A stretch of DNA of 32,000 nucleotides, from NCBI GenBank assembly GCA_964354495.1, contig CAYHAA010000001.1:615010-647009 (forward strand). The letters run 5' to 3'. This DNA is from an uncultured archaeon (GTDB lineage Archaea; Asgardarchaeota; Thorarchaeia; Thorarchaeales; Thorarchaeaceae). Each line of letters opens with the position of its first letter. Positions within the stretch are counted from its first letter, which is position 1. The translations under genes were made by a program, and so were the position numbers. Under the pieces are notes generated by a model. It was not told where the DNA came from and ran no database searches. It saw nothing but the letters and a program-made list of their open reading frames with translations. This document shows, one piece after another, positions 19,339 through 32,000 of the stretch.

Positions 19339-20886
19339 CTAGGTCTCGATTGAAGCCAACAGGGATTCATCCGTCGTGAGCGGTTTCGATTTTGCCTGAA
19401 TATGTGTGGTAGCCAAAATGCTCTCCGTGTAGGACGATACCATTCTGACTACAACTGTGGGGTCCAGAGCCCCGAACTCCAACGAATGCTTAAACTCTCC
19501 ATTACTCTCCATCACCGCGTCATCGAATGCCGCAGCGAAGTCTGCAAGGTCCACTTGATTCTGGAACATTGCAGAGATCGTATAATGCGCCCTGCTCCCG
19601 CTAATTGTTCCCACGACTGTGAAGTCCAATAGCTCTGCTCCTGTCTTTCTGCAAGCCATAGTCACTCCTTGAGTGACATGTGCATCAGTCAGTTTCTCGC
19701 CAGCTAGATTGACCACCCTGCCCTTTCTTCCGATTCTATGAACAGAATACGGTTCGGTGTCAATGAATGTGACCAGATCGCCAATTCGATATCGTGTATA
19801 TCCCATCAGGTTCGTTAGCACAATCTCATATCTTCGTCCCTTTTTCACCTCAGAGAGAGGAATCACATTGGGTTCATCATTTTCAATTTCTGACTCTGGA
19901 ATGAACTCAAAGTAGTTGATGTGGGGTAATAACTGAATGCCATTATTGGTATGAGGAAGTAATGTTGTACCATAGATTCCCTCTGACCCAGCATAGTTGT
20001 CCCATAGAACCGCCTGCGGCAGCGTCTTTGAGAGCCAGGATTTGTAGGGGTCTGCATCAATGCCTGTAGCTCCAATCAGGATGAGATGTGGCCACAGGGT
20101 TTGAAGATCCAGAGTGCCATCATCTCTCAAGGACTCCCGTATTCTTCTTTCGTGTTTGGTACCCTTGAAGTGGTTGAGGAGAGAAGGACCAAACTCATTC
20201 TGCATCTTTCTGATGAACGAGATTGCCAGAGTTGTTATACCTGCCAAGCCAGTGACATTCTCACGCACCGCATACTTTGCATACGCCCAGAGTTTTTCGG
20301 TGATGTCGGTCATATTGAATATCTCTTCTCCAGGCTTGATCAGCTTCCTCATCAGTGCATTCGCTATCAACTCCCGTGAGATTCCGGTCATATACCCGAG
20401 AGGAACGCCGTTGATATCTCCAAGATGTGCAGGTGCAGCGAATGTCAGCATCGTACCTTCGAAGACTCTCTTGTGCTCCTTTCCCGCATTGATGAATGAC
20501 ATCATGAAGAGCATGCTGGCCCTCGAGTAGTCTGCCAATCCAGACTTGCTGATTGGCAGAGCTTTGGGCTTTCCACTCGTACCACTTGATTGGACGTACC
20601 ATATCACGGGATCAGCTGTCACAATAGGAAGATTCGGGGTTTCATGGATGCGTTCAAAATAGGGTTGCATGGAATAATAGTCATAGAGAGGCACCCTTTC
20701 GCTGAATTGCTCAGGTGTCTTTATTGATTCATACCCATGGTCCTTGCCAAATGCAGTATTCCTATGCGCTTCAAGAATTGACTTGAGCTTGCTTTCAGTC
20801 AAACCTACAGGATTGTTCAGGATGTTCTCAATCTCCTTTGTCTTCCTCTTCGCGAGGATTGGAACAATCTTACTCATAATTGACAT
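19339..20886 (-). CDS. GH3 family acyl-adenylate/amido synthetase ('auxin-responsive GH3' family)
   Basis: HRNTAFGKDHG, FSERVPLYDY, QSSGTSGKPK, YAGSEG, YFEFIPE, YEIVLTNLMGYTRYRIGD and GEKLT. Confidence 0.92.
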   Translation of the reverse strand: MSIMSKIVPILAKRKTKEIENILNNPVGLTESKLKSILEAHRNTAFGKDHGYESIKTPEQFSERVPLYDYYSMQPYFERIHETPNLPIVTADPVIWYVQSSGTSGKPKALPISKSGLADYSRASMLFMMSFINAGKEHKRVFEGTMLTFAAPAHLGDINGVPLGYMTGISRELIANALMRKLIKPGEEIFNMTDITEKLWAYAKYAVRENVTGLAGITTLAISFIRKMQNEFGPSLLNHFKGTKHERRIRESLRDDGTLDLQTLWPHLILIGATGIDADPYKSWLSKTLPQAVLWDNYAGSEGIYGTTLLPHTNNGIQLLPHINYFEFIPESEIENDEPNVIPLSEVKKGRRYEIVLTNLMGYTRYRIGDLVTFIDTEPYSVHRIGRKGRVVNLAGEKLTDAHVTQGVTMACRKTGAELLDFTVVGTISGSRAHYTISAMFQNQVDLADFAAAFDDAVMESNGEFKHSLEFGALDPTVVVRMVSSYTESILATTHIQAKSKPLTTDESLLASIET

Positions 20887-21480
20887 CTCTCATCTTGCCT
20901 CCAACAGCTAAGACTAAGTAGCCTTGCCTGTTGGAACGTGCATCTCAATTCTGATTATTGTCTGCTCCGTTGTTCATAGAAGTCCTCTATGCTATCTCTC
21001 CAAGACTCTACAGCAGGTTCCATAGATTCTTGCCAGCAAATTCGCGCTATTGTGGCTCTTTTCCTTCTGGACTAGGCTATTGCCAGACTTCTACTATCAG
21101 TGTTAGTACCAAACTGCAAGAGTCAGAGGGTTTTCTCTCGTTCTTCTTGGGTTCGAGCCGGCATGTGGCTTCCATCGCCTTTTCTTCACCAACGCGTCGA
21201 TTCAAACTTGACCTCATACAACAGGAACTGCTTCTTCTTCCAACAAGAGATTGAATGTGCCATTAATGATCTGTTGGACTTGCAGAACTGTACTCTTCCA
21301 CTACCCAGAAGTCTAACACGAGCTTTGTTCAGGGTCAATGGAGCTCTATGAAATGCGATTAAGCAGCCTATGACCATCATAGTCGCTATAGGCAAACTCC
21401 AACTTCTCATATCGAGCTTCTACTCCTCTGGGCAGATTGAACTATCTTTGAGTGACAGTTGTTCTCGTACGGTGCATGAG

Positions 21481-22233
21481 ATGATTACGCAACTGGACGA
21501 ACAACTGGCCGCAGCAGTGAAAGGTGTGAAAGCACACACCACTGTGGATGTCACCCTCGTCCTTCAGGTCATGTTCAACAGCAGCGATCGCAGTATCATC
21601 ACTGCTAAGCTTCGGTACAATGGGCATGACAGGGACACCAACTTGGTGATGGTTGTTGGACTGAGGAGCGATATTCTCTCACCATTCCAGAAGATTAGTT
21701 TGGATCAGAGGGGCCGCTATCGACCCTGTGATATCCCTGGATTAGTGCCAGGACTCGCGCAGCTCGCACTATCAGCAAACAATGGTGTGATGCTTAGCGC
21801 AATTTCGCGCGAAGAGGTAACCCGATTCATCTTGGTCTTTGAAGGTTTAGCTGAGCGAAAGGGTGGATGCTTGAAGGCACTTGCATCGGTTCTCACTGCT
21901 TTCATGAAGCGGTGGACTGATTGGACCGATGTATTGCTAGGTACTCTGAAGCGAGATCCGATTGTAGGCGATTGGGACGTCGACTGGAGGGAGATGTTGG
22001 CTGGTGAAAGCGGGTATGCGACAATGGCTTGGTTCACACCCTTGACATATTCCGACCGTGAAACCGGGCTCCAGAGAATCGTTGCTGCATCTCAAGCTCT
22101 GCTCGTATCGGTACTCAGCGCGAATCAACTGAAGGACCCGATGATATTTGGCCTGAAGGATTGGCTCACATCACTGAAACCCCTTCCGCAGGTCGCAAGT
22201 AGCATGCAAGTTGGTGAGGAGGTAGAAATCTAG
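21481..22233 (+). CDS. Hypothetical protein, first gene of the recombination-associated operon
   Basis: Long ORF with natural composition; start placed at ATG 21481 (GGTG at 21471-21474), while the ORF track gives 21370. The stop is 1 nt before the next gene. Confidence 0.7.
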   Translation: MITQLDEQLAAAVKGVKAHTTVDVTLVLQVMFNSSDRSIITAKLRYNGHDRDTNLVMVVGLRSDILSPFQKISLDQRGRYRPCDIPGLVPGLAQLALSANNGVMLSAISREEVTRFILVFEGLAERKGGCLKALASVLTAFMKRWTDWTDVLLGTLKRDPIVGDWDVDWREMLAGESGYATMAWFTPLTYSDRETGLQRIVAASQALLVSVLSANQLKDPMIFGLKDWLTSLKPLPQVASSMQVGEEVEI

Positions 22234-22234
22234 T

Positions 22235-22702
22235 TTGATGGTTGATGATGTAATTTACAGTATTCCCCGTGAAACATACAGCCTGCCCCAAGCGTCTTGG
22301 TTGGCAGGTGCAGCAGCAGGTCTTCAGATCATGGGCCCGAGGACCCCTGAGTGGCTGTGGAATGATTTCATCCGTGATATCTATGATATGATACGAATGA
22401 TTGGTGATGTCGTACCTGCAGAGCCAGGTACTGCCCCTACTTATGGCGATGGCCATGTGGGAAGTGCATTCGACGCTCTTGGGGGCTATATCAGCATTGT
22501 AGGTGAAATATGTCCCGAAGGGCTCTATTTTCGTGTGCCCTTAGTTCGCCAGGAGGACGTAGCTCGTTTGCTGAATGGCCTGACACTCTTCAGATCACAA
22601 GGCGAAATCGTCATTCCTCTATACGATCTTCCAGCCTTCTCGCGTCTTGTTCCTCTGGAAGGACCGGTTGCTGAGCAGCTTGAAGATGAGGTGACTCCAT
22701 GA
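22235..22702 (+). CDS. Hypothetical protein (possible degenerate LAGLIDADG-like fold)
   Basis: GAGGAGGT RBS at 22216-22223; ATGA overlap with radA. Segment GSAFDALGGYISI weakly resembles a LAGLIDADG helix. Confidence 0.65.
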   Translation: MMVDDVIYSIPRETYSLPQASWLAGAAAGLQIMGPRTPEWLWNDFIRDIYDMIRMIGDVVPAEPGTAPTYGDGHVGSAFDALGGYISIVGEICPEGLYFRVPLVRQEDVARLLNGLTLFRSQGEIVIPLYDLPAFSRLVPLEGPVAEQLEDEVTP

Positions 22703-23790
22703 CCGAACTCGAAGCTGTGCCTGGCGTAGGCCCTGCAGTGGCCAAGAAGCTTCGGGAGGCTTATGTTACCACGGCTGAGCTTCTTGCAGTGCAGAATCCT
22801 GTGGAACTTCTGAAGCGTACAAAGTTAGGAGAAGGCACAACTGACAAAATAATCAAGAATGCTCGTCAGCTCATTGGCAAGTTCGGCTTTCGGTCCGGGC
22901 TTGAAATCGAGCAGGAAATGGCAACCAAACCTCGACTGAAGACTGGAGTCGGGAAGATTGACGAATGCCTTCTTGGCGGCATCGAAGTCGGGTCCATCGT
23001 TGAGATATTTGGGCCTGCCCGAGGTGGAAAGACCCAGTGGGTTTCGCAGCTTGCAGTGATGGCCCAACTTCCGTATAAGCAGGGTGGGCTTGAAGGCAGG
23101 GTTCTCTGGCTTGATACTGAATCAAGTTTCAAACCTTGGATAATTAGAGCGAATGCGGTCAGGCATGGTCTGGATCCAGATATCGCACTCGGCAACATCG
23201 GGCGCGCTGAGATTGTGCTTTCTGGCCAGATTGCTGAAATTTTTGAGAGCATCCCTCAGCTCTGCGCCGAACAGAACTACAAGCTTGTTGTGATTGACAG
23301 TTTCACTGGTCTCTTTCGTGCCGAGTACACAGGGCTCGAGTCTATGCGTGTCCGACAACAGGACATGAATTCTCTCCTTAACCACATGCGACGTACAGCT
23401 GCTGCAACAGAAGCCATCTTTGCATATACGAACCAAGTCATGGCAAAGATCTCAAACTACGGAGGCAATCCCAATGCGCCTGTCGGTGGACACATCATTT
23501 CGCATGCGAGTGATTACAGATTCTACACGCGCAGGACCAAAGCTGATATTCGCAAGATTGAACTACAGGACAACGCCGGCCTGCCAGAGTTCGATGTTGA
23601 TGTGTACGTAGGTTGGGGTGGATTCTATTCTGACTCCAAGGCAAAGAAGGAGCATGAGCCTGATGTCTTAGAGTACTTCGAGAAGCGAGGTATCAACGTT
23701 CAGGAGGAGGCAGGTGCACTGGGCTCTGATTCAGAAGAAGAGGAGCTCGTGGCAGTGGCTGAGTCAGCCCAGGCAGGCGACGATACGTGA
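22699..23790 (+). CDS. radA: RadA/Rad51-family recombinase paralogue with N-terminal HhH domain and acidic tail
   Basis: LEAVPGVGP (HhH), LKTGVGKIDECLLGGIEVG, Walker A GPARGGKT, LDTESSF, Walker B LVVIDSF, RQQ, TNQV and GGHIISH. GAGGTGA RBS at 22688. Confidence 0.92.
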   Translation: MTELEAVPGVGPAVAKKLREAYVTTAELLAVQNPVELLKRTKLGEGTTDKIIKNARQLIGKFGFRSGLEIEQEMATKPRLKTGVGKIDECLLGGIEVGSIVEIFGPARGGKTQWVSQLAVMAQLPYKQGGLEGRVLWLDTESSFKPWIIRANAVRHGLDPDIALGNIGRAEIVLSGQIAEIFESIPQLCAEQNYKLVVIDSFTGLFRAEYTGLESMRVRQQDMNSLLNHMRRTAAATEAIFAYTNQVMAKISNYGGNPNAPVGGHIISHASDYRFYTRRTKADIRKIELQDNAGLPEFDVDVYVGWGGFYSDSKAKKEHEPDVLEYFEKRGINVQEEAGALGSDSEEEELVAVAESAQAGDDT

Positions 23791-24245
23791 GCAGAGACCG
23801 GGGCATGTTCCGAGTCTACCATTGTGCGAAATGCAACAACATTGGTTACAGCCAAGTAGAGAGTGAAGAGGATCTCACCAGATGCGGTCTATGTCACGCT
23901 CCCATTCTACATGAAACTGGAACTGTCTACGCAGTGACGAAGCACGAAGCCCAGACGTTAGTACGAGAACTTGCTCTTGAATCACATACTTCAAGGGCTG
24001 CTTCAAAGCGAAGCCCTCCACGTGGACTAGGCGTGAAGAGGAGAGTATACAATATTATTGAGGCATTGGTGGACATCAAACGAGGCAAACCCACCTCACT
24101 TGAGGAAGTGATGAGGGAATGCAGCGAGGCTGGGATAGAGCTTCGCCGTGCAATGAAGTTCTTGGAAACTCTGGAGTCGGAGGGCTTGATTGTCAATGAT
24201 GGTGCGAATATTACTATAACACGCGAGGTATGGCCCGATGGCTAG
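23787..24245 (+). CDS. Zinc-ribbon (CxxC...CxxC) plus C-terminal winged-helix protein (DUF1922/DUF5817-like architecture)
   Basis: HCAKC...RCGLC, then RVYNIIEAL...SLEEVMRECSEAGI...KFLETLESEGLI, resembling MCM-type C-terminal WH. GTGA overlap with radA. Confidence 0.7.
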   Translation: MSRDRGMFRVYHCAKCNNIGYSQVESEEDLTRCGLCHAPILHETGTVYAVTKHEAQTLVRELALESHTSRAASKRSPPRGLGVKRRVYNIIEALVDIKRGKPTSLEEVMRECSEAGIELRRAMKFLETLESEGLIVNDGANITITREVWPDG

Positions 24246-24858
24246 CTCTGATAGCCTTTCAGATTCCTTGTTGCCTAATAAGGCAGCGGCCTGCATTCCG
24301 CAGTGGTCGATGATTAGCCTAGTCAATCTCATGCTTAGAAAAACGCCGCATAGAGTATCTGTCTTAGAGCGATGTGATGGCCCCGACCCTCAGTTATTTG
24401 TCGTGACGCGCGTTGAGTGGAGAGACCCTGACGTCAAGAAACCATTTCTTTCACAGCTACCTAGGATACTCTCTCTTCTCGAGACTCTTCGTGGTTCCAA
24501 GGGTGTCCCTCGAGAGGTCTATCTTGACAGCACAGAAGGTGTCGTGGTCTACCTGCCCAGTGGCTTGAAGGTTTCCGAGTTGCCTCATGAACCCAAGAAT
24601 GCAGTTCATCTTCTGATGTCCATTGTAGAAACCTCTCTCGAACATCTGTATTCAACTATGGGAGACGTTGAATCTTGGTTCTGGAAGGCTGCTCGCCAGA
24701 AGGGATTCAGTCCCGAGATTGTTGAGAAGATGGGGAAGAAGGAGGCGCACTACGACTCTAATGATTTGATGTGGCGGTTTCAACGACTCCTCCAGAAGTA
24801 CTTCTCGTTGAGGTTCACTATTCAACGGAGCGAGTCATGCTTAAGATTGGAGGATTAA
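24238..24858 (+). CDS. Hypothetical protein
   Basis: 206-aa ORF overlapping the upstream gene by 8 nt and ending 2 nt before the XPD start. Confidence 0.7.
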   Translation: MASSDSLSDSLLPNKAAACIPQWSMISLVNLMLRKTPHRVSVLERCDGPDPQLFVVTRVEWRDPDVKKPFLSQLPRILSLLETLRGSKGVPREVYLDSTEGVVVYLPSGLKVSELPHEPKNAVHLLMSIVETSLEHLYSTMGDVESWFWKAARQKGFSPEIVEKMGKKEAHYDSNDLMWRFQRLLQKYFSLRFTIQRSESCLRLED

Positions 24859-24860
24859 GA

Positions 24861-26813
24861 GTGAGCAGCGCGACAATCGACCCTATGATCTATTTCCCCT
24901 ATTCTCCGAGGCAATATCAGGAGAGAGCAGTAAGCCTAGCTGCAAAGGCTTTCTCCTCGGATACGGTCGGGCTTCTTCACGCAGACTGTGGGATTGGCAA
25001 GACAATCGCAGTGCTCTCCGGATATCTTGCTTGTCGAGCTATGGATTCAGCTGCTCATCTTTTTGCTCTGACGCGTACTCATTCCCAATCTAAGGTCTTT
25101 GAGACAGAGCTTGAGGTGCTCAGAAGCGCAGTGCCTCATCTGGCTGCTACCACCATGGTATCTCGAGTTCATGTCTGTCCAATTCGTCATCAGATGGAAT
25201 CGCTCAGTCATACAGGTTTCATGCGAGCGTGCGTAAATATGATTAAGACTGAGCAGTGCATCTACTACTGGAATTTCTACAAGCGAAGCAATACTGATGG
25301 CAAAGTAGTCATCGATGAGGATGGGCGCAGGGCAATAGGGGACCTGCTTGATACTGGAGTTGTCACGAGAGAGAGGGCTGAAGAACGAGCGGCGCAGGAT
25401 GGCTATTGTCCCTACGAGATTATGCGATGGTGCGCTCGTGGAAGCATGGTCGTCATCGGACCCTATTCCTACATGTTCAAGTCACGAGTCCGAGAGGCTC
25501 TCCTCTCATCCTTAGGTCTCTCTCTCAATGAAGTGGACCTGCTCATCGATGAGGCCCACAATCTGTCAGGGCACGTTCTTGATGCTGAGACATCAATTCT
25601 AAGTAACGATGATCTGCGATGGTTGAGGGAGAATAGCCAGCTAGTGGTTCGAGAAACAGGCGTATCGTGGATTCGCGAGGCGATTGACTTTCTTTGGGAG
25701 AGCATGATGCTTCACCTGGACACTATGCAGAAACAGACGGAGTGTCCTCTTGACAAGTGGGATGTTGCGCCTAGGTTCATCAAGGATGAGGACCTCGACA
25801 TCCTTCACCGTGTGGGCCGACCAGAGCTTGGCGACCCAGAAAATGCCAGTCTTGTTGAGACTCCTCTTGATAGACTCATTGAGTTCCTCTACACCGCTCA
25901 AAGAGCTGCACGAAGTGATGGATGGCACGTTACTCTGCACGTGGATCATTCATTCTCTGATGACTTGCCAAGATCAACATCTTCTCTCATGATTCAACCA
26001 CTCAACTCTGCAGGATTGACTGCTCCAATTCTCAGAGGAGCTAGATCTGCTGTACTGATGTCTGGGACTCTCCGGCCGCTGGACTATTACGAGCGTCTGT
26101 TGGGCGTGCCAAACGCGATTTCGGATGACCTCACAAGCCCTTACCCCCGAGGCACACGACTTGTACTCATTGACAAGAGGCTGAACACGCGATACAAGGA
26201 ACGCAACCCGGAGTTATGGCGAGATGTTGCAGCAAGGATTTCCGCTGCTCTCTGTACCATGCCTGCGAACAAGAGTGCGCTCGTTGCGTTTCCCTCCTAC
26301 AAGATGATGAGCGAGGTAATGAGCTATAGTATAGATACCGGATTTCGGGAGGCATTAGTAGAAACGCGAGATGCCCTGTTGGAAACCGTTGCTCAAGCGA
26401 TTTCACACAGCCCTTGCGCTATGTTTTGCGTATATGGCGGCAAGTTCTCGGAAGGAATCGATCTTGTCAGTGCTGGTTCTAGTATGATTGACCTGATTAT
26501 TGGCGTAGGCATACCATTCAGTCCTCCGACAAGCTATCAGACAGCTCTTCAGAGCTGGTATGATAGCAAGTTCGGGCATGGCATGGGCTACTACTATGCA
26601 TCTGTCGTACCATCAATCAGACAGGTTGCACAGTTGGTTGGGAGACTGAGACGCTCTCCAAGTGATTCTGGTGTTGTCGTACTTCTTGATAATAGGTTTC
26701 TACAGCATCTGTCGGTCTTTGGGGATGAAATTGTATCGGACGTCTGGCCATACAATGACCCCATGGAAATGAAGGAGGCGATTACACAATTCAACCAGGT
26801 GAGGCTGGGATAG
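24861..26813 (+). CDS. XPD/Rad3/DinG-family ATP-dependent Fe-S DNA helicase
   Basis: FPYSPRQYQ (Q motif), ADCGIGKT, four Fe-S Cys (RVHVCP, RACV, QCIYY, YCPYE), IDEAHNL, MSGTL, FPSY, GGKFSEGID, GIPF and QLVGRLRR. Start placed at GTG 24861 after GGAGG. Confidence 0.93.
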   Translation: MSSATIDPMIYFPYSPRQYQERAVSLAAKAFSSDTVGLLHADCGIGKTIAVLSGYLACRAMDSAAHLFALTRTHSQSKVFETELEVLRSAVPHLAATTMVSRVHVCPIRHQMESLSHTGFMRACVNMIKTEQCIYYWNFYKRSNTDGKVVIDEDGRRAIGDLLDTGVVTRERAEERAAQDGYCPYEIMRWCARGSMVVIGPYSYMFKSRVREALLSSLGLSLNEVDLLIDEAHNLSGHVLDAETSILSNDDLRWLRENSQLVVRETGVSWIREAIDFLWESMMLHLDTMQKQTECPLDKWDVAPRFIKDEDLDILHRVGRPELGDPENASLVETPLDRLIEFLYTAQRAARSDGWHVTLHVDHSFSDDLPRSTSSLMIQPLNSAGLTAPILRGARSAVLMSGTLRPLDYYERLLGVPNAISDDLTSPYPRGTRLVLIDKRLNTRYKERNPELWRDVAARISAALCTMPANKSALVAFPSYKMMSEVMSYSIDTGFREALVETRDALLETVAQAISHSPCAMFCVYGGKFSEGIDLVSAGSSMIDLIIGVGIPFSPPTSYQTALQSWYDSKFGHGMGYYYASVVPSIRQVAQLVGRLRRSPSDSGVVVLLDNRFLQHLSVFGDEIVSDVWPYNDPMEMKEAITQFNQVRLG

Positions 26814-26815
26814 AT

Positions 26816-27421
26816 ATGATGCAACTCCACGCTTTTCACGAATTGAAACTGATTGGCCTGACCATCCTGGCAGTTATCTTTGTGCTCAAGGTCTACCTTG
26901 CTCCTGGAGACTCTGTAGGGATTATTATGACTGGTGCTGGTCTGGCCGCATATGTTGCAGCCTTAGTTATCCATCTGTCATCGTCATCCATACCACGGGT
27001 CCTCTGGGATGCCAAGCTCGGCGCTGTGGCTATCATTCGCTCTTGGACAGTCGAGGTCGCCTCAGCAAAGATTCTCTCAAGTGTGCCTATTGGCATTGAC
27101 TTGAGTCATTCTGGTCGAAAGGTACTGCAGTCTATGTACACTCGATTCCTAGACAAGCCCGGGGGAACATTAGTCTTCTTCATCACTAGACCGATGGGCA
27201 ACCAATCAACAAGAGTGGGCTACCTAGTTCGGAGAAGGAGATTGAGGCTTTGGAACAGCTTAGGTCCGGTTAACAACCTTGGGAAGATGATCACTGCTGA
27301 CTGTATGATTCTGGAACGGTCGATGAGAGCTGCCTATCCTCATCTTCCCGTGGTCGATGCTAGCTTCGCCGACATCATAACAACCGCAGCTGGAGGTCTT
27401 GAAACTCATGTCGTCGTCTGA
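26816..27421 (+). CDS. Membrane protein with two N-terminal TM helices and a cytoplasmic alpha/beta domain
   Basis: LIGLTILAVIFVLKVYL and VGIIMTGAGLAAYVAALVIHL followed by a basic soluble region; 2-nt gap to XPD. Confidence 0.7.
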   Translation: MMQLHAFHELKLIGLTILAVIFVLKVYLAPGDSVGIIMTGAGLAAYVAALVIHLSSSSIPRVLWDAKLGAVAIIRSWTVEVASAKILSSVPIGIDLSHSGRKVLQSMYTRFLDKPGGTLVFFITRPMGNQSTRVGYLVRRRRLRLWNSLGPVNNLGKMITADCMILERSMRAAYPHLPVVDASFADIITTAAGGLETHVVV

Positions 27422-27707
27422 ACAACGCTCTGGCATCGAAATCCCTGAAGGTGTAAGTCCAGAGGCAATCATGAGCTTTTTGGAAGTTGGTCACAACTAT
27501 CGTTGGACCGTGCTTACGCGTCTGCCTCTCTTGGTCGCTCACGGTGCACCTGCACTGGGCACTGGTAATATGCCTGAAATCCTCTTGGCTGGCAATAGAT
27601 CTATGATTATTGCAGGTGGTGACACCGCATACGTCGAGAGAATACGCCACGTACTCGAGATGTTGAAGCGTCAATCACAGCGAATGATTTTTACAAAGGA
27701 GGGTTGA
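27408..27707 (+). CDS. Small hypothetical protein
   Basis: GGAGGT at 27392-27397 precedes ATG 27408; overlaps the upstream gene by 14 nt. Confidence 0.65.
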   Translation: MSSSEQRSGIEIPEGVSPEAIMSFLEVGHNYRWTVLTRLPLLVAHGAPALGTGNMPEILLAGNRSMIIAGGDTAYVERIRHVLEMLKRQSQRMIFTKEG

Positions 27708-27711
27708 GAGA

Positions 27712-30072
27712 ATGCCTAAACGCTTGATACTTGGGACTAGACCTGAATCCGATCCTCTGAAAGAGTTCTCCGATTCTGACTACTCCGTTTCCTCTTCTAC
27801 TGAGATCCGATGGGATGAGAGGACACAGAGTCGTCCTCTTGCTCTACCAGCGTTCATCTCGCTCATCTGTGTTGCCCTTGGGTTGTATGACCCCCTCATC
27901 CCGTTCACTGTCGGAATCGCCGTTGTTGCGTTGGTCCTGTTGATCCCTTTCATCCGAACGAACTGGGACAAGATGGTCTTGCGAGAAGACTCTTGGATTG
28001 AGGTACAGCAATCAGACACGCTTTGCTCTATCGTTGATGACATTGTGGGCCTGAACTGCAGGACACCTACAGGTACACATCATCTAATGGGAATGCAGCT
28101 GGGTGCTGCAAACTCCATTCTTCTAGGTGACGTCGGCTCGTTCGTGCGAGCGGTTGATGGCCCATTCGGTTTTTGCCTAACTGTGACGATGCAGCCCGAG
28201 AAAGTCCAACGTGCCCTGGACGAGGAACGCATTGCGGATCCGGTTGAAGATTATCTCAACGCGATTCCTAAAGGAGAGGTTGAAGCTTATGTTCTTCGGC
28301 GAGGGGGCCTGTGGATTTCTCAGGTGACAGCTGTGGGCCATTTCAGGAACGCTGCTGATGGCGATATCTTCGAGTGTGCCCTAAAGGCATCGATTCCAAT
28401 GGATAAATGGAAGCGTATCCCGTCTAGGACTCTGCAAAAAGGAACTGAGCAGCTTGCTGCTAACGACCAATCTAAGTGGTTCTATGCAGTTGGCTCAGAG
28501 CTCTCTGAATGGTTAGTGCAGCTGCGATCAGAGCTGGCTTCCGAGGTTGGACGAAGTATCCCCGGTCAGTTTCTCGCCCCAATCAGAGGGAGATCCGATG
28601 ACTATCGCTTGGGCGTGACTATCAATCCAGATACCTTACGGACAGGACCACCAGTAGGCCTCTCTCACCTTGAACTGGAGAATGGCCTGTTGATATGCGG
28701 AGGCGCTGCTGAATCAAGAATGAGAATCATTGCTCTACTGACATCTGAGCTCTTGCATGCTGGCAAGCGCATTATCATCTTTACAAATAACAGAGCATCT
28801 ATTGGTTATGCTCGGCTCTTGGAAGGAACAGTGCATCTTGAGCTCGGAAGAGACTTTGTGCTCAATCCAGTCGACTCTGAAGGTGTTCCAAGAAGCGACT
28901 ATGTACCGCTTCTGATCTCTTCCCTTGAAGTGGTGGCAGCCACAGATCTGAGGGGTGCCGCGGAGCTTGAGCTGGCAATATCGTGTGCTGTCACTCTTGG
29001 AAATGCAACACTGGCTGACGTTCAACTCAGCAATGGCTCTGAAGAGGCTATTTCATCTTCTCCTGAAACCTCGAAACCACTTGAATCAATGCCTTCGAAC
29101 AAGTCGAAGACAGGAATGGAGGCAGTTCGCTCACTGCATCAAGGCTCTGCCGCTAAAGCATTCTATGGCACTCAGACAGCTCCAACTTCTAGGCTCACAG
29201 AATCTGCATTGACTGTTGTAAGGGTTCTTCTGGGGTCTGCTTCTCTCGAACACTTTGCATGGAATGTGATTTCAATAAAGCTGGCCGGTCTGGGTCCAGA
29301 TCCCAATCTAGTGGTGATTCTTGATGGACCAGAGAACATGCGGGTGAGAAATCGCACCTTCATGAAGCATGACTCGCTTAGTGAGCGTCTTGTTGAAAAC
29401 ATGAAGAAGAGAGGTCCAGTCGTAGTAGCACTGGAGCATCCCGCAGACATGGCTGTGGGAGCTATCGGTGCTTTGGCTTCATGTGTGTCACTGAGGCTGC
29501 GTGAGGCAGCAGACATCATGGTGGCTTCCGATATATTGGGCCTGAATGTGATTACAACTCCCTTGCATACTAAAGCGCGTATTTCTCCGAGAGAATCCTC
29601 ATATCTTCGAGTAATGGATGATGACACTGCACTCCTCGTGCATGATGGGACTGAAAGCTGTCAACCTATCAGACTCGATCCAGCTCCCGAATTGACTCCG
29701 GAGAGTGCCACAGAGGAGGAGTCCCAACGGATTGGCACACTGCTATCATCAGAGGACACGAGCAGTGCACCAAATCAAGGGTCTCTGCTTGACAGAGTTT
29801 CTGCGGGCTGTACTATTCTTGCCATCAGAGTCCTGAAGTTGCTTGAGAGATACGAACCGTTGACTCAGGAGGCTGTACGTCGATTCATAGTGGCTAGTGG
29901 TTCGGAGAATGATCCTGACGTAGAGGCTGTCCTTGCGAGGCTTGAGCATGCTAGCATGATTCTACGCGGTCATGAGGTCCATAGCGGAGTATCGTATACA
30001 AACTACAGAATCACAATGAAAGGAAGCATGGCCCTTCGTCAGACTGAGGGTACGGAGGGTGCAATTGCATGA
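27712..30072 (+). CDS. Membrane-anchored HerA/VirB4/FtsK-like protein with degenerate ATPase motifs and C-terminal winged helix
   Basis: Two N-terminal TMs. GLLICGGAAESRM occupies the Walker A position, FVLNPVD follows, VVILDGPE occupies the Walker B position and MKKRGPVVVALEHPAD matches the GRKYG...TQRPSD position. C-terminal wHTH: RVLKLLERYEPLT...LARLEHASMI...YRITMKG. Confidence 0.6.
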   Translation: MPKRLILGTRPESDPLKEFSDSDYSVSSSTEIRWDERTQSRPLALPAFISLICVALGLYDPLIPFTVGIAVVALVLLIPFIRTNWDKMVLREDSWIEVQQSDTLCSIVDDIVGLNCRTPTGTHHLMGMQLGAANSILLGDVGSFVRAVDGPFGFCLTVTMQPEKVQRALDEERIADPVEDYLNAIPKGEVEAYVLRRGGLWISQVTAVGHFRNAADGDIFECALKASIPMDKWKRIPSRTLQKGTEQLAANDQSKWFYAVGSELSEWLVQLRSELASEVGRSIPGQFLAPIRGRSDDYRLGVTINPDTLRTGPPVGLSHLELENGLLICGGAAESRMRIIALLTSELLHAGKRIIIFTNNRASIGYARLLEGTVHLELGRDFVLNPVDSEGVPRSDYVPLLISSLEVVAATDLRGAAELELAISCAVTLGNATLADVQLSNGSEEAISSSPETSKPLESMPSNKSKTGMEAVRSLHQGSAAKAFYGTQTAPTSRLTESALTVVRVLLGSASLEHFAWNVISIKLAGLGPDPNLVVILDGPENMRVRNRTFMKHDSLSERLVENMKKRGPVVVALEHPADMAVGAIGALASCVSLRLREAADIMVASDILGLNVITTPLHTKARISPRESSYLRVMDDDTALLVHDGTESCQPIRLDPAPELTPESATEEESQRIGTLLSSEDTSSAPNQGSLLDRVSAGCTILAIRVLKLLERYEPLTQEAVRRFIVASGSENDPDVEAVLARLEHASMILRGHEVHSGVSYTNYRITMKGSMALRQTEGTEGAIA

Positions 30073-32000
30073 CCGTAGTTTCGGATGTGACATCACTGGT
30101 CACAAAGCTACTCAGTCAGGCTGGGATGAAACCCCGGGGTGTTCAAACCGAGGCAATCAACAGAGGTCTCTTGGAGGGAGAGAGCATCATGGTTTCCTCT
30201 CCGACAGGCTCTGGCAAGACATTCTGCGGCGAGATTGCGCTTCTGAGAGCAGTTGCCTCCGGAAAGAAAGGGCTGTTTCTCGTACCACTACGAGCTCTTG
30301 CAGTTCAGGTATTCAGAACGGTGAAAGAAAGATACGAGCACTTGGGCGTCTCAATTGGGCTGAGCACTGGTGATTTTCAAAACAATGGAGATGGACTTGC
30401 TGAGAATGATATTATCATCACGACGTACGAACGTGCAGATTCACTCTTACGAAGCAAAAGTAGTTGTCTCTCTGAGGTCGGCACGATTGTCATCGACGAA
30501 ATTCAAACGCTCTCTGAGGTCGGCCGTGGAGCTCGCCTAGAGAGCTTTATTATTCGGGCAAAGCGAACCATCCAAGACCTTCAGATTGTGGCATTATCCG
30601 CAACAACAGGAGCTCCCGAGGAACTTGCAGAGTGGCTGGGATGTCATCTTGTGATCTCAGACGAACGACCTGTTCCTCTTGTGTATCGAATAGTTACAGC
30701 GAGTGACAAGATTCTCACGATCAAGCATCTAGTGATGACCACAGTTCAAGGGAATGGGCAGGCAATCATCTTTCACCGGACTCGTCGGGAAGCTGAAGCA
30801 GAAGCTAGACGACTCGCTGATGATGTGGGGCGCCAGTTCACTTCTGATGAGAAGACGCGCCTTGATCACGAGCTGAACTCTGTTGAGAATTGGCATGTGC
30901 CCCTCTCTTCAGATCTTAGAGTCCTTCTACACAATGGTATTGCATTTCATCATGCAGGTCTTGGCTTCAATGGTCGTCGAATTGTAGAGCGATTGTTCGA
31001 TAAAGGAATGGTCCGCGTCATATGTGCAACGACAACATTGGCAGCCGGAATGGACCTGCCAGCTAGAACCGTGATACTCTCCAACTTCAGGTCTCCTGCT
31101 GACCACAGAAAATTCCTGTCAGCAAACACAGTCCACCAGATGTTGGGGAGGGCGGGTCGTCCTACTCGTGACAAGATAGGATTCGGAATAATCATTGGAA
31201 ACAGCACAGGTGAGAGTGAGGAGGCAAAACGCCGGTACTTCGAAGTCACCGAAGATGCAACATCAGGAAAGGAAGTTCTATCACCCAAGTATGATCGTGT
31301 CAACAGTGCACTTGCCCACCCTGACACTCTTGCTGAGCAGCTTCTTGTTGCTCTCGACATGATGTCCTCGGCATCCATTGAAGACATCGAGAATGGCTTG
31401 CTTGGTGAATCCTTCTTGGTCTTCTGCGCAATTCGAGACTCAAAGGCTCCAATGAGGGTCTTTCAGCTAGGCGAAATCTCGGCGGCTTCAGTCTTGGAGC
31501 AGCATGCTCTCCCTGAGACCATTCAGACTGCGCGTAAGGATTTGCTCGGTAAGACATCACTTCGTGAGAAGAACGAAACCGTAATTGGCGGGATTGTTAC
31601 GACGCTTGATGGAGGGCAATTCACATGTCGTTTCTCGGTACGTCTTTCGTCATCGGGTGTTGTTGAAGGTCCCATGTGCTCGTGTGGCTCACCCTTGTCT
31701 GAGAGCGGCATTCTGTGCTATCATCTGGTGACTCTAGGAATGGCTGCTGCCAGGAACTTGGGCAATCTGGCTGACTACGTCATTCCTCTCTCACTCTCTG
31801 AATCGAGCCCTCTGGGTCTGTTGATACGCCTTGGACTCGTCGAGGGTGATATTAGTGGAAAGATTAGACCTACACGTCTTGGTCGTGCCGTGAGTAGACT
31901 CTATCTGCGCATTCCCACGGTTCGAGAGACCCTTGCAATGCTCCCCTCGACTGAGGACGTTAAGTCGCTCTTATGGCTCTTGAGGCACGCTGTTTCAATT
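30069..32000 (+). CDS. 3'-truncated Hel308/Hjm/Ski2-like SF2 helicase with an inserted SWIM zinc finger
   Basis: Absent from the ORF track because it has no stop in the window; translated by hand from ATG 30069 (ATGA overlap). Motifs: VQTEAI, SPTGSGKT, VPLRALA, TTYE, IDEIQ, LSAT, FHHAGL, ATTTLAAGMDLPA, QMLGRAGRP, CSC-x10-CYH at 31677-31724 and PTRLGRAVSRLYL. Confidence 0.92.
   Translation, partial: MTVVSDVTSLVTKLLSQAGMKPRGVQTEAINRGLLEGESIMVSSPTGSGKTFCGEIALLRAVASGKKGLFLVPLRALAVQVFRTVKERYEHLGVSIGLSTGDFQNNGDGLAENDIIITTYERADSLLRSKSSCLSEVGTIVIDEIQTLSEVGRGARLESFIIRAKRTIQDLQIVALSATTGAPEELAEWLGCHLVISDERPVPLVYRIVTASDKILTIKHLVMTTVQGNGQAIIFHRTRREAEAEARRLADDVGRQFTSDEKTRLDHELNSVENWHVPLSSDLRVLLHNGIAFHHAGLGFNGRRIVERLFDKGMVRVICATTTLAAGMDLPARTVILSNFRSPADHRKFLSANTVHQMLGRAGRPTRDKIGFGIIIGNSTGESEEAKRRYFEVTEDATSGKEVLSPKYDRVNSALAHPDTLAEQLLVALDMMSSASIEDIENGLLGESFLVFCAIRDSKAPMRVFQLGEISAASVLEQHALPETIQTARKDLLGKTSLREKNETVIGGIVTTLDGGQFTCRFSVRLSSSGVVEGPMCSCGSPLSESGILCYHLVTLGMAAARNLGNLADYVIPLSLSESSPLGLLIRLGLVEGDISGKIRPTRLGRAVSRLYLRIPTVRETLAMLPSTEDVKSLLWLLRHAVSI

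Follow-up and report, generated by a model that had tools for sequence, protein, structure and literature searches.

Why would an archaeon keep, between the genes of two intact helicases, a protein that has the fold of a DNA-handling ATPase but has lost the residues of its active site? As motors, VirB4 and HerA proteins are known to drive DNA through membranes or to process its ends, yet the Asgard-wide family considered here appears, from its motifs, to have given up ATP hydrolysis while remaining strongly conserved. We addressed this question for P0001, which is encoded as a single copy in a Thorarchaeota (Asgard) metagenome-assembled genome (MAG; 3.3 Mb, 97.7% complete), within a stretch of 32,000 nucleotides taken from the forward strand of contig CAYHAA010000001.1 (assembly GCA_964354495.1, positions 615,010 to 647,009). 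This stretch is called the window below, and unprefixed nucleotide positions refer to it. The reading we favor, with a probability of about 0.6, is that P0001 acts as a non-hydrolysing hub or portal, by which the DNA enzymes of the gene cassette around it are held at the membrane.

The P-loop core and its altered motif slots

The protein was modeled with AlphaFold2 from 41 homologues (mean predicted local distance difference test score, pLDDT, 73.7), giving a helical hairpin (residues 44–92), an alpha/beta core (288–672), and a helix-helix-helix-hairpin-helix tail (701–785). Foldseek placed TrwK/VirB4, HerA, and TrwB among the best matches of the model (E values of 4e-12 to 1e-8), and structural comparison returned values of 28.4 for the C-terminal domain of Thermoanaerobacter VirB4 (model residues 288–661; root-mean-square deviation, rmsd, 2.9 Å over 325 residues), 24.8 for DndH-C, 24.7 for Sulfolobus HerA, about 21 for TrwB, and 14.9 for FtsK. 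Neighbors according to a protein language model were likewise DUF87/HerA, CedB (0.91), and VirB4-like clusters. Family searches were silent by comparison: Pfam, NCBIfam, and PADLOC recognized no family in P0001 and 41 aligned relatives (a PADLOC match to DruC at E 0.016 is at chance level), phmmer found no match among Protein Data Bank (PDB) sequences, and the Pfam models VirB4/CagE_TrbE_VirB, AAA_10, and P-loop_TraG had no match at E values up to 1 in 41 family members, nor were there matches in NCBIfam. PF01935 (HerA/DUF87) also left P0001 undetected, though it matches 11 other loci of the same genome. Judged from the model, the core is a VirB4/HerA-clade P-loop domain, as an earlier note on this DNA had proposed from the sequence, and the alternative of a fold other than the P-loop type is excluded. 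For the region before the core the picture is less sharp. Whole-chain superposition co-aligned P0001 from residue 96 onward with TrwK from residue 206 onward, N-domain included, at a high rmsd of 7–8 Å, and a few HerA superpositions started at model residue 142; the N-domain itself is mixed alpha/beta, with no evident HAS barrel.

The slots of the catalytic motifs could be located by profile alignment with an active relative. The ATPase-like domain aligned with a HerA-like paralogue from this genome whose motifs are intact (L058; hhalign 97.1%, E 6.4e-11) and with a second HerA-like paralogue (L056; 93.5%). Against L058, CGGAAESRM falls on AGSIGSGKT and VILDGPEN on IVLEEAHN, while M564 takes the place of the Arg of GRK and E575 that of the sensor Gln, with P577 retained. 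A weak but independent HMMER alignment with HerA (8ziq) agrees in the register of Walker B and sensor, the modeled strands 326–329, 533–538, and 570–574 lead into the slots, and a structural motif LNP is common to P0001 and the active paralogue. The motif strings that the earlier note had read as altered catalytic motifs, GGAAESRM (residues 330–337, 28699–28722), VVILDGPE (534–541, 29311–29334), MKKRG (564–568), and LEHP (574–577), lie where it placed them, and the hhalign mapping and modeled strands identify them as genuine motif slots rather than chance look-alikes.

The alteration extends through the family. Among 116 full-length Thorarchaeota orthologues, on which the following counts are based, GK[ST] was found in none. 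The Walker A slot instead holds a conserved C-G-G-x4-R (C in 112, the two G in 116 and 110, R in 113), whereas the Ser/Thr slot is variable (R24, M22, L22, T14, H8, and others). The Walker B acid is D in 101 and E in 14 (D/E in 115), and N542 is conserved in 107; the catalytic-Glu slot varies (G56, E21, D14, N9), the Arg-finger slot is Leu in 106, and the sensor slot is mostly E (74), with D in 19 and N in 10. GK[ST] was also missing from all 17 remote Asgard homologues examined, most of which retain the Arg, typically as GGTxxQRF. By sequence, then, the Walker A Lys/Thr, catalytic Glu, Arg finger, and sensor Gln are lost family-wide. Since GK[ST] is missing from orthologues and remote homologues alike, the inactivation is ancient, with a new conserved loop in place of the P-loop, and P0001 is predicted from its motifs to be incapable of hydrolysing ATP.

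The family is broad within its lineage. A total of 119 relatives was found (about 780 amino acids, 35–88% identity), all in Thorarchaeota-type MAGs and annotated "hypothetical," and exhaustive searching added remote relatives at 20–30% identity, one of them labeled Lokiarchaeota. A full-length, intact open reading frame (ORF) is present in about 40 species-level genomes. Within its own taxonomic family, a profile search detected P0001 in 52 of 76 genomes; a sister family contributed one further genome, and some other Asgard families held weak relatives only. A literature search returned no published description of the P0001 family or the cassette. One further copy, of Thorarchaeota type, lies on a contig binned as "Desulfuromonadales bacterium" (L045, MAXT01000013.1, 2130 bp), probably a binning error; its frame stops early (ORF 1–1392, match 1–1813). 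The ratio of nonsynonymous to synonymous substitution rates (dN/dS), calculated by the Nei-Gojobori method against the closest species (L007, isolate OWC2; 91% amino acid identity, dS 0.36, unsaturated), was 0.129 for the whole protein and 0.105 for the ATPase-like domain. On these values P0001 is under strong purifying selection.

The pattern in the slots qualifies what the earlier note had called erosion: the catalytic residues are indeed gone, but random decay does not describe a Walker A site replaced by a conserved motif beside a retained Walker B Asp. Of the alternatives to a hub, the one that survives best takes P0001 to be a non-hydrolysing sensor of a nucleotide or phosphate ligand, in which a pocket of CGGxxxxR, D538, and N542 would act as a switch gating the assembly or activity of the cassette enzymes; we regard this as unlikely. 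Comparable switches include many pseudokinases as well as EccC, through its degenerate ATPase domains. The Walker A slot is conserved beyond what a dead site would need, the glycine-rich loop geometry is retained along with the Walker B Asp and N542, and the domain as a whole is strongly constrained. Set against this, the slot of the Mg-coordinating Ser/Thr is variable, those of the catalytic Glu, Arg finger, and sensor are lost, and acidic residues are frequent in the loop itself (E/D/S at 334–335).

Features of P0001 and of the neighboring cassette genes in the window (TM, transmembrane)
Feature	Position	Strand	Basis
P0001, whole gene, intact ORF, 786 aa (amino acids)	27712..30072	+	ORF call
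N-terminal tail, residues 1–42, predicted cytoplasmic, conserved linear motif	27712..27837	+	consensus, dN/dS 0.06, pLDDT <50
TM helical hairpin, residues ~43–85	27838..27966	+	hydropathy and AlphaFold2 model
Alpha/beta N-domain, residues 96–250	27997..28461	+	AlphaFold2 model
Acidic segment, residues 251–287, highly conserved	28462..28572	+	dN/dS 0.023, pLDDT <50
Predicted VirB4/HerA-type P-loop NTPase-fold domain, catalytically degenerate by motif, residues 288–672	28573..29727	+	
Walker A slot CGGAAESRM, residues 329–337; R336 for Lys, M337 for Ser/Thr	28696..28722	+	hhalign
Walker B slot LVVILDGPEN, residues 533–542; D538 kept, G539 at catalytic Glu	29308..29337	+	hhalign, HMMER
Arg-finger and sensor region MKKRGPVVVALEHP, residues 564–577; M564 in Arg-finger slot, E575 in sensor-Gln slot	29401..29442	+	hhalign, HMMER
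PadR-like winged helix and C-terminal helix, residues 701–786	29812..30069	+	model, Foldseek, profile
RadA paralogue, helix-hairpin-helix domain, Walker A GPARGGKT	22699-23790	+	
g4, 152 aa, N-terminal CxxC...CxxC (zinc-ribbon-like), winged-helix/Sso10a-like C-terminus (weak, E 0.04–0.05)	23787-24245	+	
206-aa protein, no assigned family	24238-24858	+	
XPD-like helicase, intact ADCGIGKT and DEAH	24771-26813	+	
g7, 201 aa, N-terminal TM hairpin and domain weakly like the P0001 N-domain	26816..27421	+	
g8, soluble 102-aa product without a known family; gene end 4 nt ahead of the P0001 start	27399..27707	+	
Hel308-like helicase, 730 aa in full, intact SPTGSGKT and DEIQ	30069..32000	+	

An optional 13-gene cassette

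P0001 is gene 9 of a co-directional string of overlapping genes, opened by g1 and g2 (function unassigned) 5' of the RadA paralogue. Genes g1 to g10 keep one and the same order at about 40 Thorarchaeota loci, even where P0001 identity falls to 34%, and around a 26%-identical relative (L002) as well. The flanks are also the same across genera, with GH3 upstream and a convergent gene of 650–680 amino acids downstream, and a mobile-element or provirus origin of the cassette is for this reason unlikely. In a congener (G251, 92% complete), the site is empty: on contig G251:C97 (L066:1118-7154), GH3, g1, and g2 are succeeded, 14 bp farther on, by the convergent 655-aa gene. All 13 genes that elsewhere run from the RadA paralogue through the FEN1-like nuclease are absent there, while g1 and g2 remain at 60% identity each (compared with window positions 19339–22702 and with L062:7297-10034). 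Because this congener retains g1 and g2 without the 13 genes, the cassette proper begins at 22699 and not at g1. The cassette is an optional 13-gene unit at a fixed chromosomal site.

Its members combine DNA enzymes with membrane proteins, and P0001 is closely linked to its neighbors: a GGAGG-like site lies 9–12 nt 5' of its ATG, and its TGA overlaps the ATG of the Hel308-like gene as ATGA. Beyond the Hel308-like gene follow a 562-aa protein with a TM hairpin, a 237-aa KaiC/RadA-like P-loop protein, a 322-aa protein with about four TM segments, a short Rad51-like protein, and the XPG/FEN1-like nuclease. Four cassette products are thereby membrane proteins (P0001, g7, and the 562- and 322-aa proteins). 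The helicases on either side of P0001 have intact motifs I and II, and the motifs of the RadA paralogue are intact as well. Higher-scoring, canonical RadA, XPD, and FEN1 are encoded elsewhere in the same genome, so that the cassette enzymes are spare paralogues; in Thorarchaeota, translational coupling ties the dead ATPase to an additional, optional group comprising recombination enzymes as well as membrane proteins. Among the small genes, g4 is present in all cassettes and g7 is syntenic at all loci. The latter aligns colinearly, if weakly, with the TM hairpin and N-domain of P0001 (hhalign 33%, E 4.5e-4) and with a stand-alone N-domain protein of a remote lineage described below (L064; 54%), and it may represent a paralogous "anchor plus N-domain" module of P0001, to judge from these alignments. 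The products of g1, g2, g4, g5, and g8 gave no hhalign match to P0001 domains.

An optional unit rich in nucleic acid enzymes could also serve defense against mobile elements rather than repair or DNA transfer, with P0001 still acting as an inactive hub at the molecular level. The cassette differs between congeners and is patchy in the family; HerA-like proteins, superfamily 2 (SF2) helicases, and nucleases are common parts of defense systems; and PADLOC models for Hachiman HamB and type IV DinG give scores for the Hel308-like and the XPD-like protein, respectively. However, the constancy of site and gene order across genera, from 91% down to 34% identity, fits vertical descent, PADLOC has no model for P0001 beyond the chance-level match given above, and a defense system would not typically contain RadA paralogues or a FEN1-like nuclease. 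A defensive role is accordingly something we hold to be rather improbable.

More distant relatives show other arrangements of the same parts. In another Asgard lineage the protein is split (L064:7198-9602): a 277-aa TM protein corresponds to the P0001 N-domain (hhalign 96.3%, E 1.6e-9) and its gene runs into the start of the next, whose 533-aa product comprises segment 251–287, the dead P-loop core, and the winged helix; a Hel308-like helicase and a KaiC-like ATPase are encoded in the same operon. Remote relatives at this locus and at L065 adjoin Hel308-like, KaiC-like, or FEN1-like genes, and the Lokiarchaeota-labeled relative lies near an XPG/FEN1-like gene. In two further lineages (L003:12547-14931 and L063:9131-11752), a HerA-like protein of 794–873 amino acids follows directly after the P0001 homologue and is intact, with GIPKTGKS in L003, GGTNMGKS in L063 (hhalign 91%), and EEAH.

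This last arrangement suggests an ancestral pairing of a dead with a live ATPase, and it raises the question of whether P0001 is an inactive subunit of a mixed ring whose motor is an active HerA/VirB4-like paralogue encoded elsewhere. Candidate partners exist, as the genome has 11 DUF87/HerA loci, nearly all with intact Walker A. At about 40 loci, however, the Thorarchaeota cassette contains no HerA-like gene, and the gene coupled to P0001 is that of the Hel308-like helicase. We give such a mixed ring little credence.

Two observations on these gene families stand apart from the question. The DUF87/HerA loci (C6:101975, C1:47256, C6:66562, C15:63547, and others) include several open frames of 1000–1270 amino acids, and the eleven together are an unusually rich complement of FtsK-HerA-type ATPases for a 3.3-Mb archaeon. 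At L004 and L005, remote P0001 homologues (771–977 amino acids) adjoin very large Peptidase_M28 proteins on contigs that also have Arf-like GTPase and Roadblock/LAMTOR-like genes; given these contexts, the wider P0001 family is not everywhere tied to recombination genes.

Anchor, linear segments, and winged-helix tail

The two N-terminal TM helices reported in the earlier note are supported by hydropathy and by the model (~43–60 and 62–85), with hydropathy peaks at 40–67 and 51–85 and modeled hairpin helices at 44–59 and 62–92. The loop between them is very short, which would put the N-terminal tail and everything C-terminal of the hairpin on the same side of the membrane, presumably the cytoplasmic one. 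The hairpin is the least constrained part of the protein (dN/dS 0.37). In contrast, segments 1–42 and 251–287 are modeled with low confidence yet are among the most conserved parts of P0001, and in this they resemble interaction motifs. The tail has the family consensus lilG.kPe.DPlee ... teirWd.R. Segment 251–287, which has the lowest dN/dS in the protein, reads wFyA.G.ELseWLVQL.SELAsEVGsNiPGqF across the family, with W267, Q270, E274, L275, E278, P284, and F287 invariant, and short distant homologues start at this segment. It is a candidate partner or oligomer interface.

The C-terminal winged helix-turn-helix (wHTH) claimed in the earlier note is likewise borne out. Modeled alone on 48 sequences (pLDDT 86), it matched PadR-family, TFE-alpha, and MarR structures in Foldseek (TM-score up to 0.73, rmsd 1.8–2.2 Å, about 85 residues), including the PadR-type structures Rv3488 and TA0346, and its profile matched the PadR-like structure 3l7w (E 5e-4). 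Distant family members have Pfam PadR/HTH_34 matches (E 3e-5 to 1e-3), and the order of elements is that of a PadR-like fold, a wHTH followed by a C-terminal helix, with the signature LxRLE ... YxhTxKG. FtsK gamma was absent among the structures matched, which is not evidence of its absence. To our knowledge, a C-terminal wHTH is atypical of VirB4 and CedB, as the earlier note remarked. The domain order of P0001 (TM hairpin, N-domain, dead P-loop core, PadR-like winged helix) is new.

With dN/dS of 0.040, the winged helix is the most conserved domain of P0001, and it is of a regulator type; P0001 might on this account be a membrane-tethered, PadR-like transcription regulator of the cassette, its VirB4-like domain serving only as a sensor or sequestration module. 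For a tether, however, a VirB4-like domain of 400 residues together with an N-domain and two strongly constrained linear motifs would be excessive. The gene lies in mid-operon, translationally coupled on both sides, and the winged helix, in spite of ten conserved K/R columns, has no net positive charge. We consider a regulator of this kind very improbable. Least tenable is decay of an active ATPase into a pseudogene, for which the missing catalytic residues alone would speak and which we reject, because the same alteration runs through all orthologues, about 40 species carry an intact ORF, and dN/dS is 0.13; a check of orthologues and selection, which the earlier note had called for, thereby excludes a copy that is simply decaying.

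A membrane hub compared with known systems

We return to the non-hydrolysing hub, which would work as follows. The TM hairpin would anchor P0001 in the cytoplasmic membrane with all soluble parts in the cytoplasm, and the protein would form the structural center of a 13-gene cassette machine without hydrolysing ATP. It would hold at the membrane the RadA paralogue, the XPD-like and Hel308-like helicases, the two short RadA/KaiC-like proteins, and the FEN1-like nuclease, beside the remaining three small membrane proteins. DNA or partners would be engaged by the PadR-like winged helix and by the unstructured segments 1–42 and 251–287. P0001 itself would supply no energy, a task that would fall to the intact helicases or RadA-like ATPases.

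Several points weigh against this proposal. The conserved CGGxxxxR beside the retained Walker B Asp is not degenerate noise, and to judge from its residues the pocket may have kept the ability to bind a nucleotide or some other phosphate ligand. The HerA-like neighbors in two remote lineages hint that a hetero-oligomer of pseudo-ATPase and active paralogue was the ancestral mode. A net charge of about zero makes DNA binding by the winged helix not obvious. The cassette is dispensable, as its absence from the same site in the 92%-complete congener indicates, and P0001 is found in 52 of the 76 genomes of its family. Lastly, we infer the oligomeric ring, partner contacts, and DNA binding of P0001, together with the energy supply by helicases or RadA-like proteins; the ring, the link to DNA, and the helicases as motors go back to the earlier note, whose interpretation is supported in part.

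A bolder extension, which we put forward tentatively and think doubtful as a whole, is that the cassette encodes an undescribed Asgard membrane-bound DNA machine, for example for uptake or exchange coupled to recombination, in which an inactive VirB4-like ring would serve as portal or docking platform and SF2 helicases and RadA paralogues would replace the VirB4/VirD4 motors. If true, a conjugation-type ATPase would here have been domesticated independently, in parallel with the crenarchaeal Ced/Ted systems.

How does such a protein compare with known ones? FtsK and SpoIIIE have the architecture of TM segments, motor, and winged helix, and an N-terminal TM hairpin is typical of the VirD4/TrwB coupling proteins, points that the earlier note passes over. 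P0001 resembles FtsK/SpoIIIE in its predicted order of anchor, core, and winged helix and TrwB in its predicted N-terminal TM hairpin. With HerA it shares the FtsK-HerA-type ATPase domain, but unlike HerA it is membrane-anchored, has a winged-helix tail, and has lost the catalytic motifs, and no NurA, SIR2, or DUF4297 partner was found in the cassette by Pfam, NCBIfam, or PADLOC, the sole nuclease being XPG/FEN1-like. With VirB4/TrwK (PDB 4ag5, 7o43, 8rtd) it shares the type of the C-terminal RecA-like NTPase domain. It differs in lacking the Walker A Lys/Thr, catalytic Glu, and Arg finger, in adding a C-terminal PadR-like winged helix, and in its neighbors, which are recombination paralogues, with VirB6, VirB8, and pilin genes unrecognized nearby. 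The small membrane proteins of the cassette, which have 2–4 TM segments, had no Pfam match to VirB3, VirB6, VirB8, or pilin, although remote homology is possible.

VirB4 is described as the ubiquitous ATPase of type IV secretion systems (T4SS), with homologues in Archaea; VirB4 and VirD4 are grouped as translocators of single-stranded DNA distinct from FtsK/TraB, and HerA branches closer to these two (PMC3548315). In Crenarchaeota, domestication of T4SS has given rise to the Ced/Ted systems, which comprise a VirB4-like ATPase, a VirB6-like channel, and a pilin and show genomic linkage to recombination genes (PMC9905601). The likeness of P0001 to CedB/TedB lies in the combination of an archaeal VirB4/HerA-like protein with small two-TM proteins and a link to recombination genes (PMC9905601). 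However, CedB is described as the ATPase that powers import (PMC9905601), whereas the motor motifs of P0001 are lost and its lineage is Asgard, and neither a polytopic CedA/VirB6-like channel (the largest candidate has about four TM segments) nor a pilin was recognized in the cassette. As P0001 departs from VirB4, HerA, and Ced/Ted in catalytic residues and, as far as the recognized genes go, in partners, it is filed in none of them; it represents a new, inactive branch within the FtsK-HerA superfamily, on the VirB4/HerA/VirD4 side, and would provide a clean natural example of a pseudo-ATPase in that superfamily.

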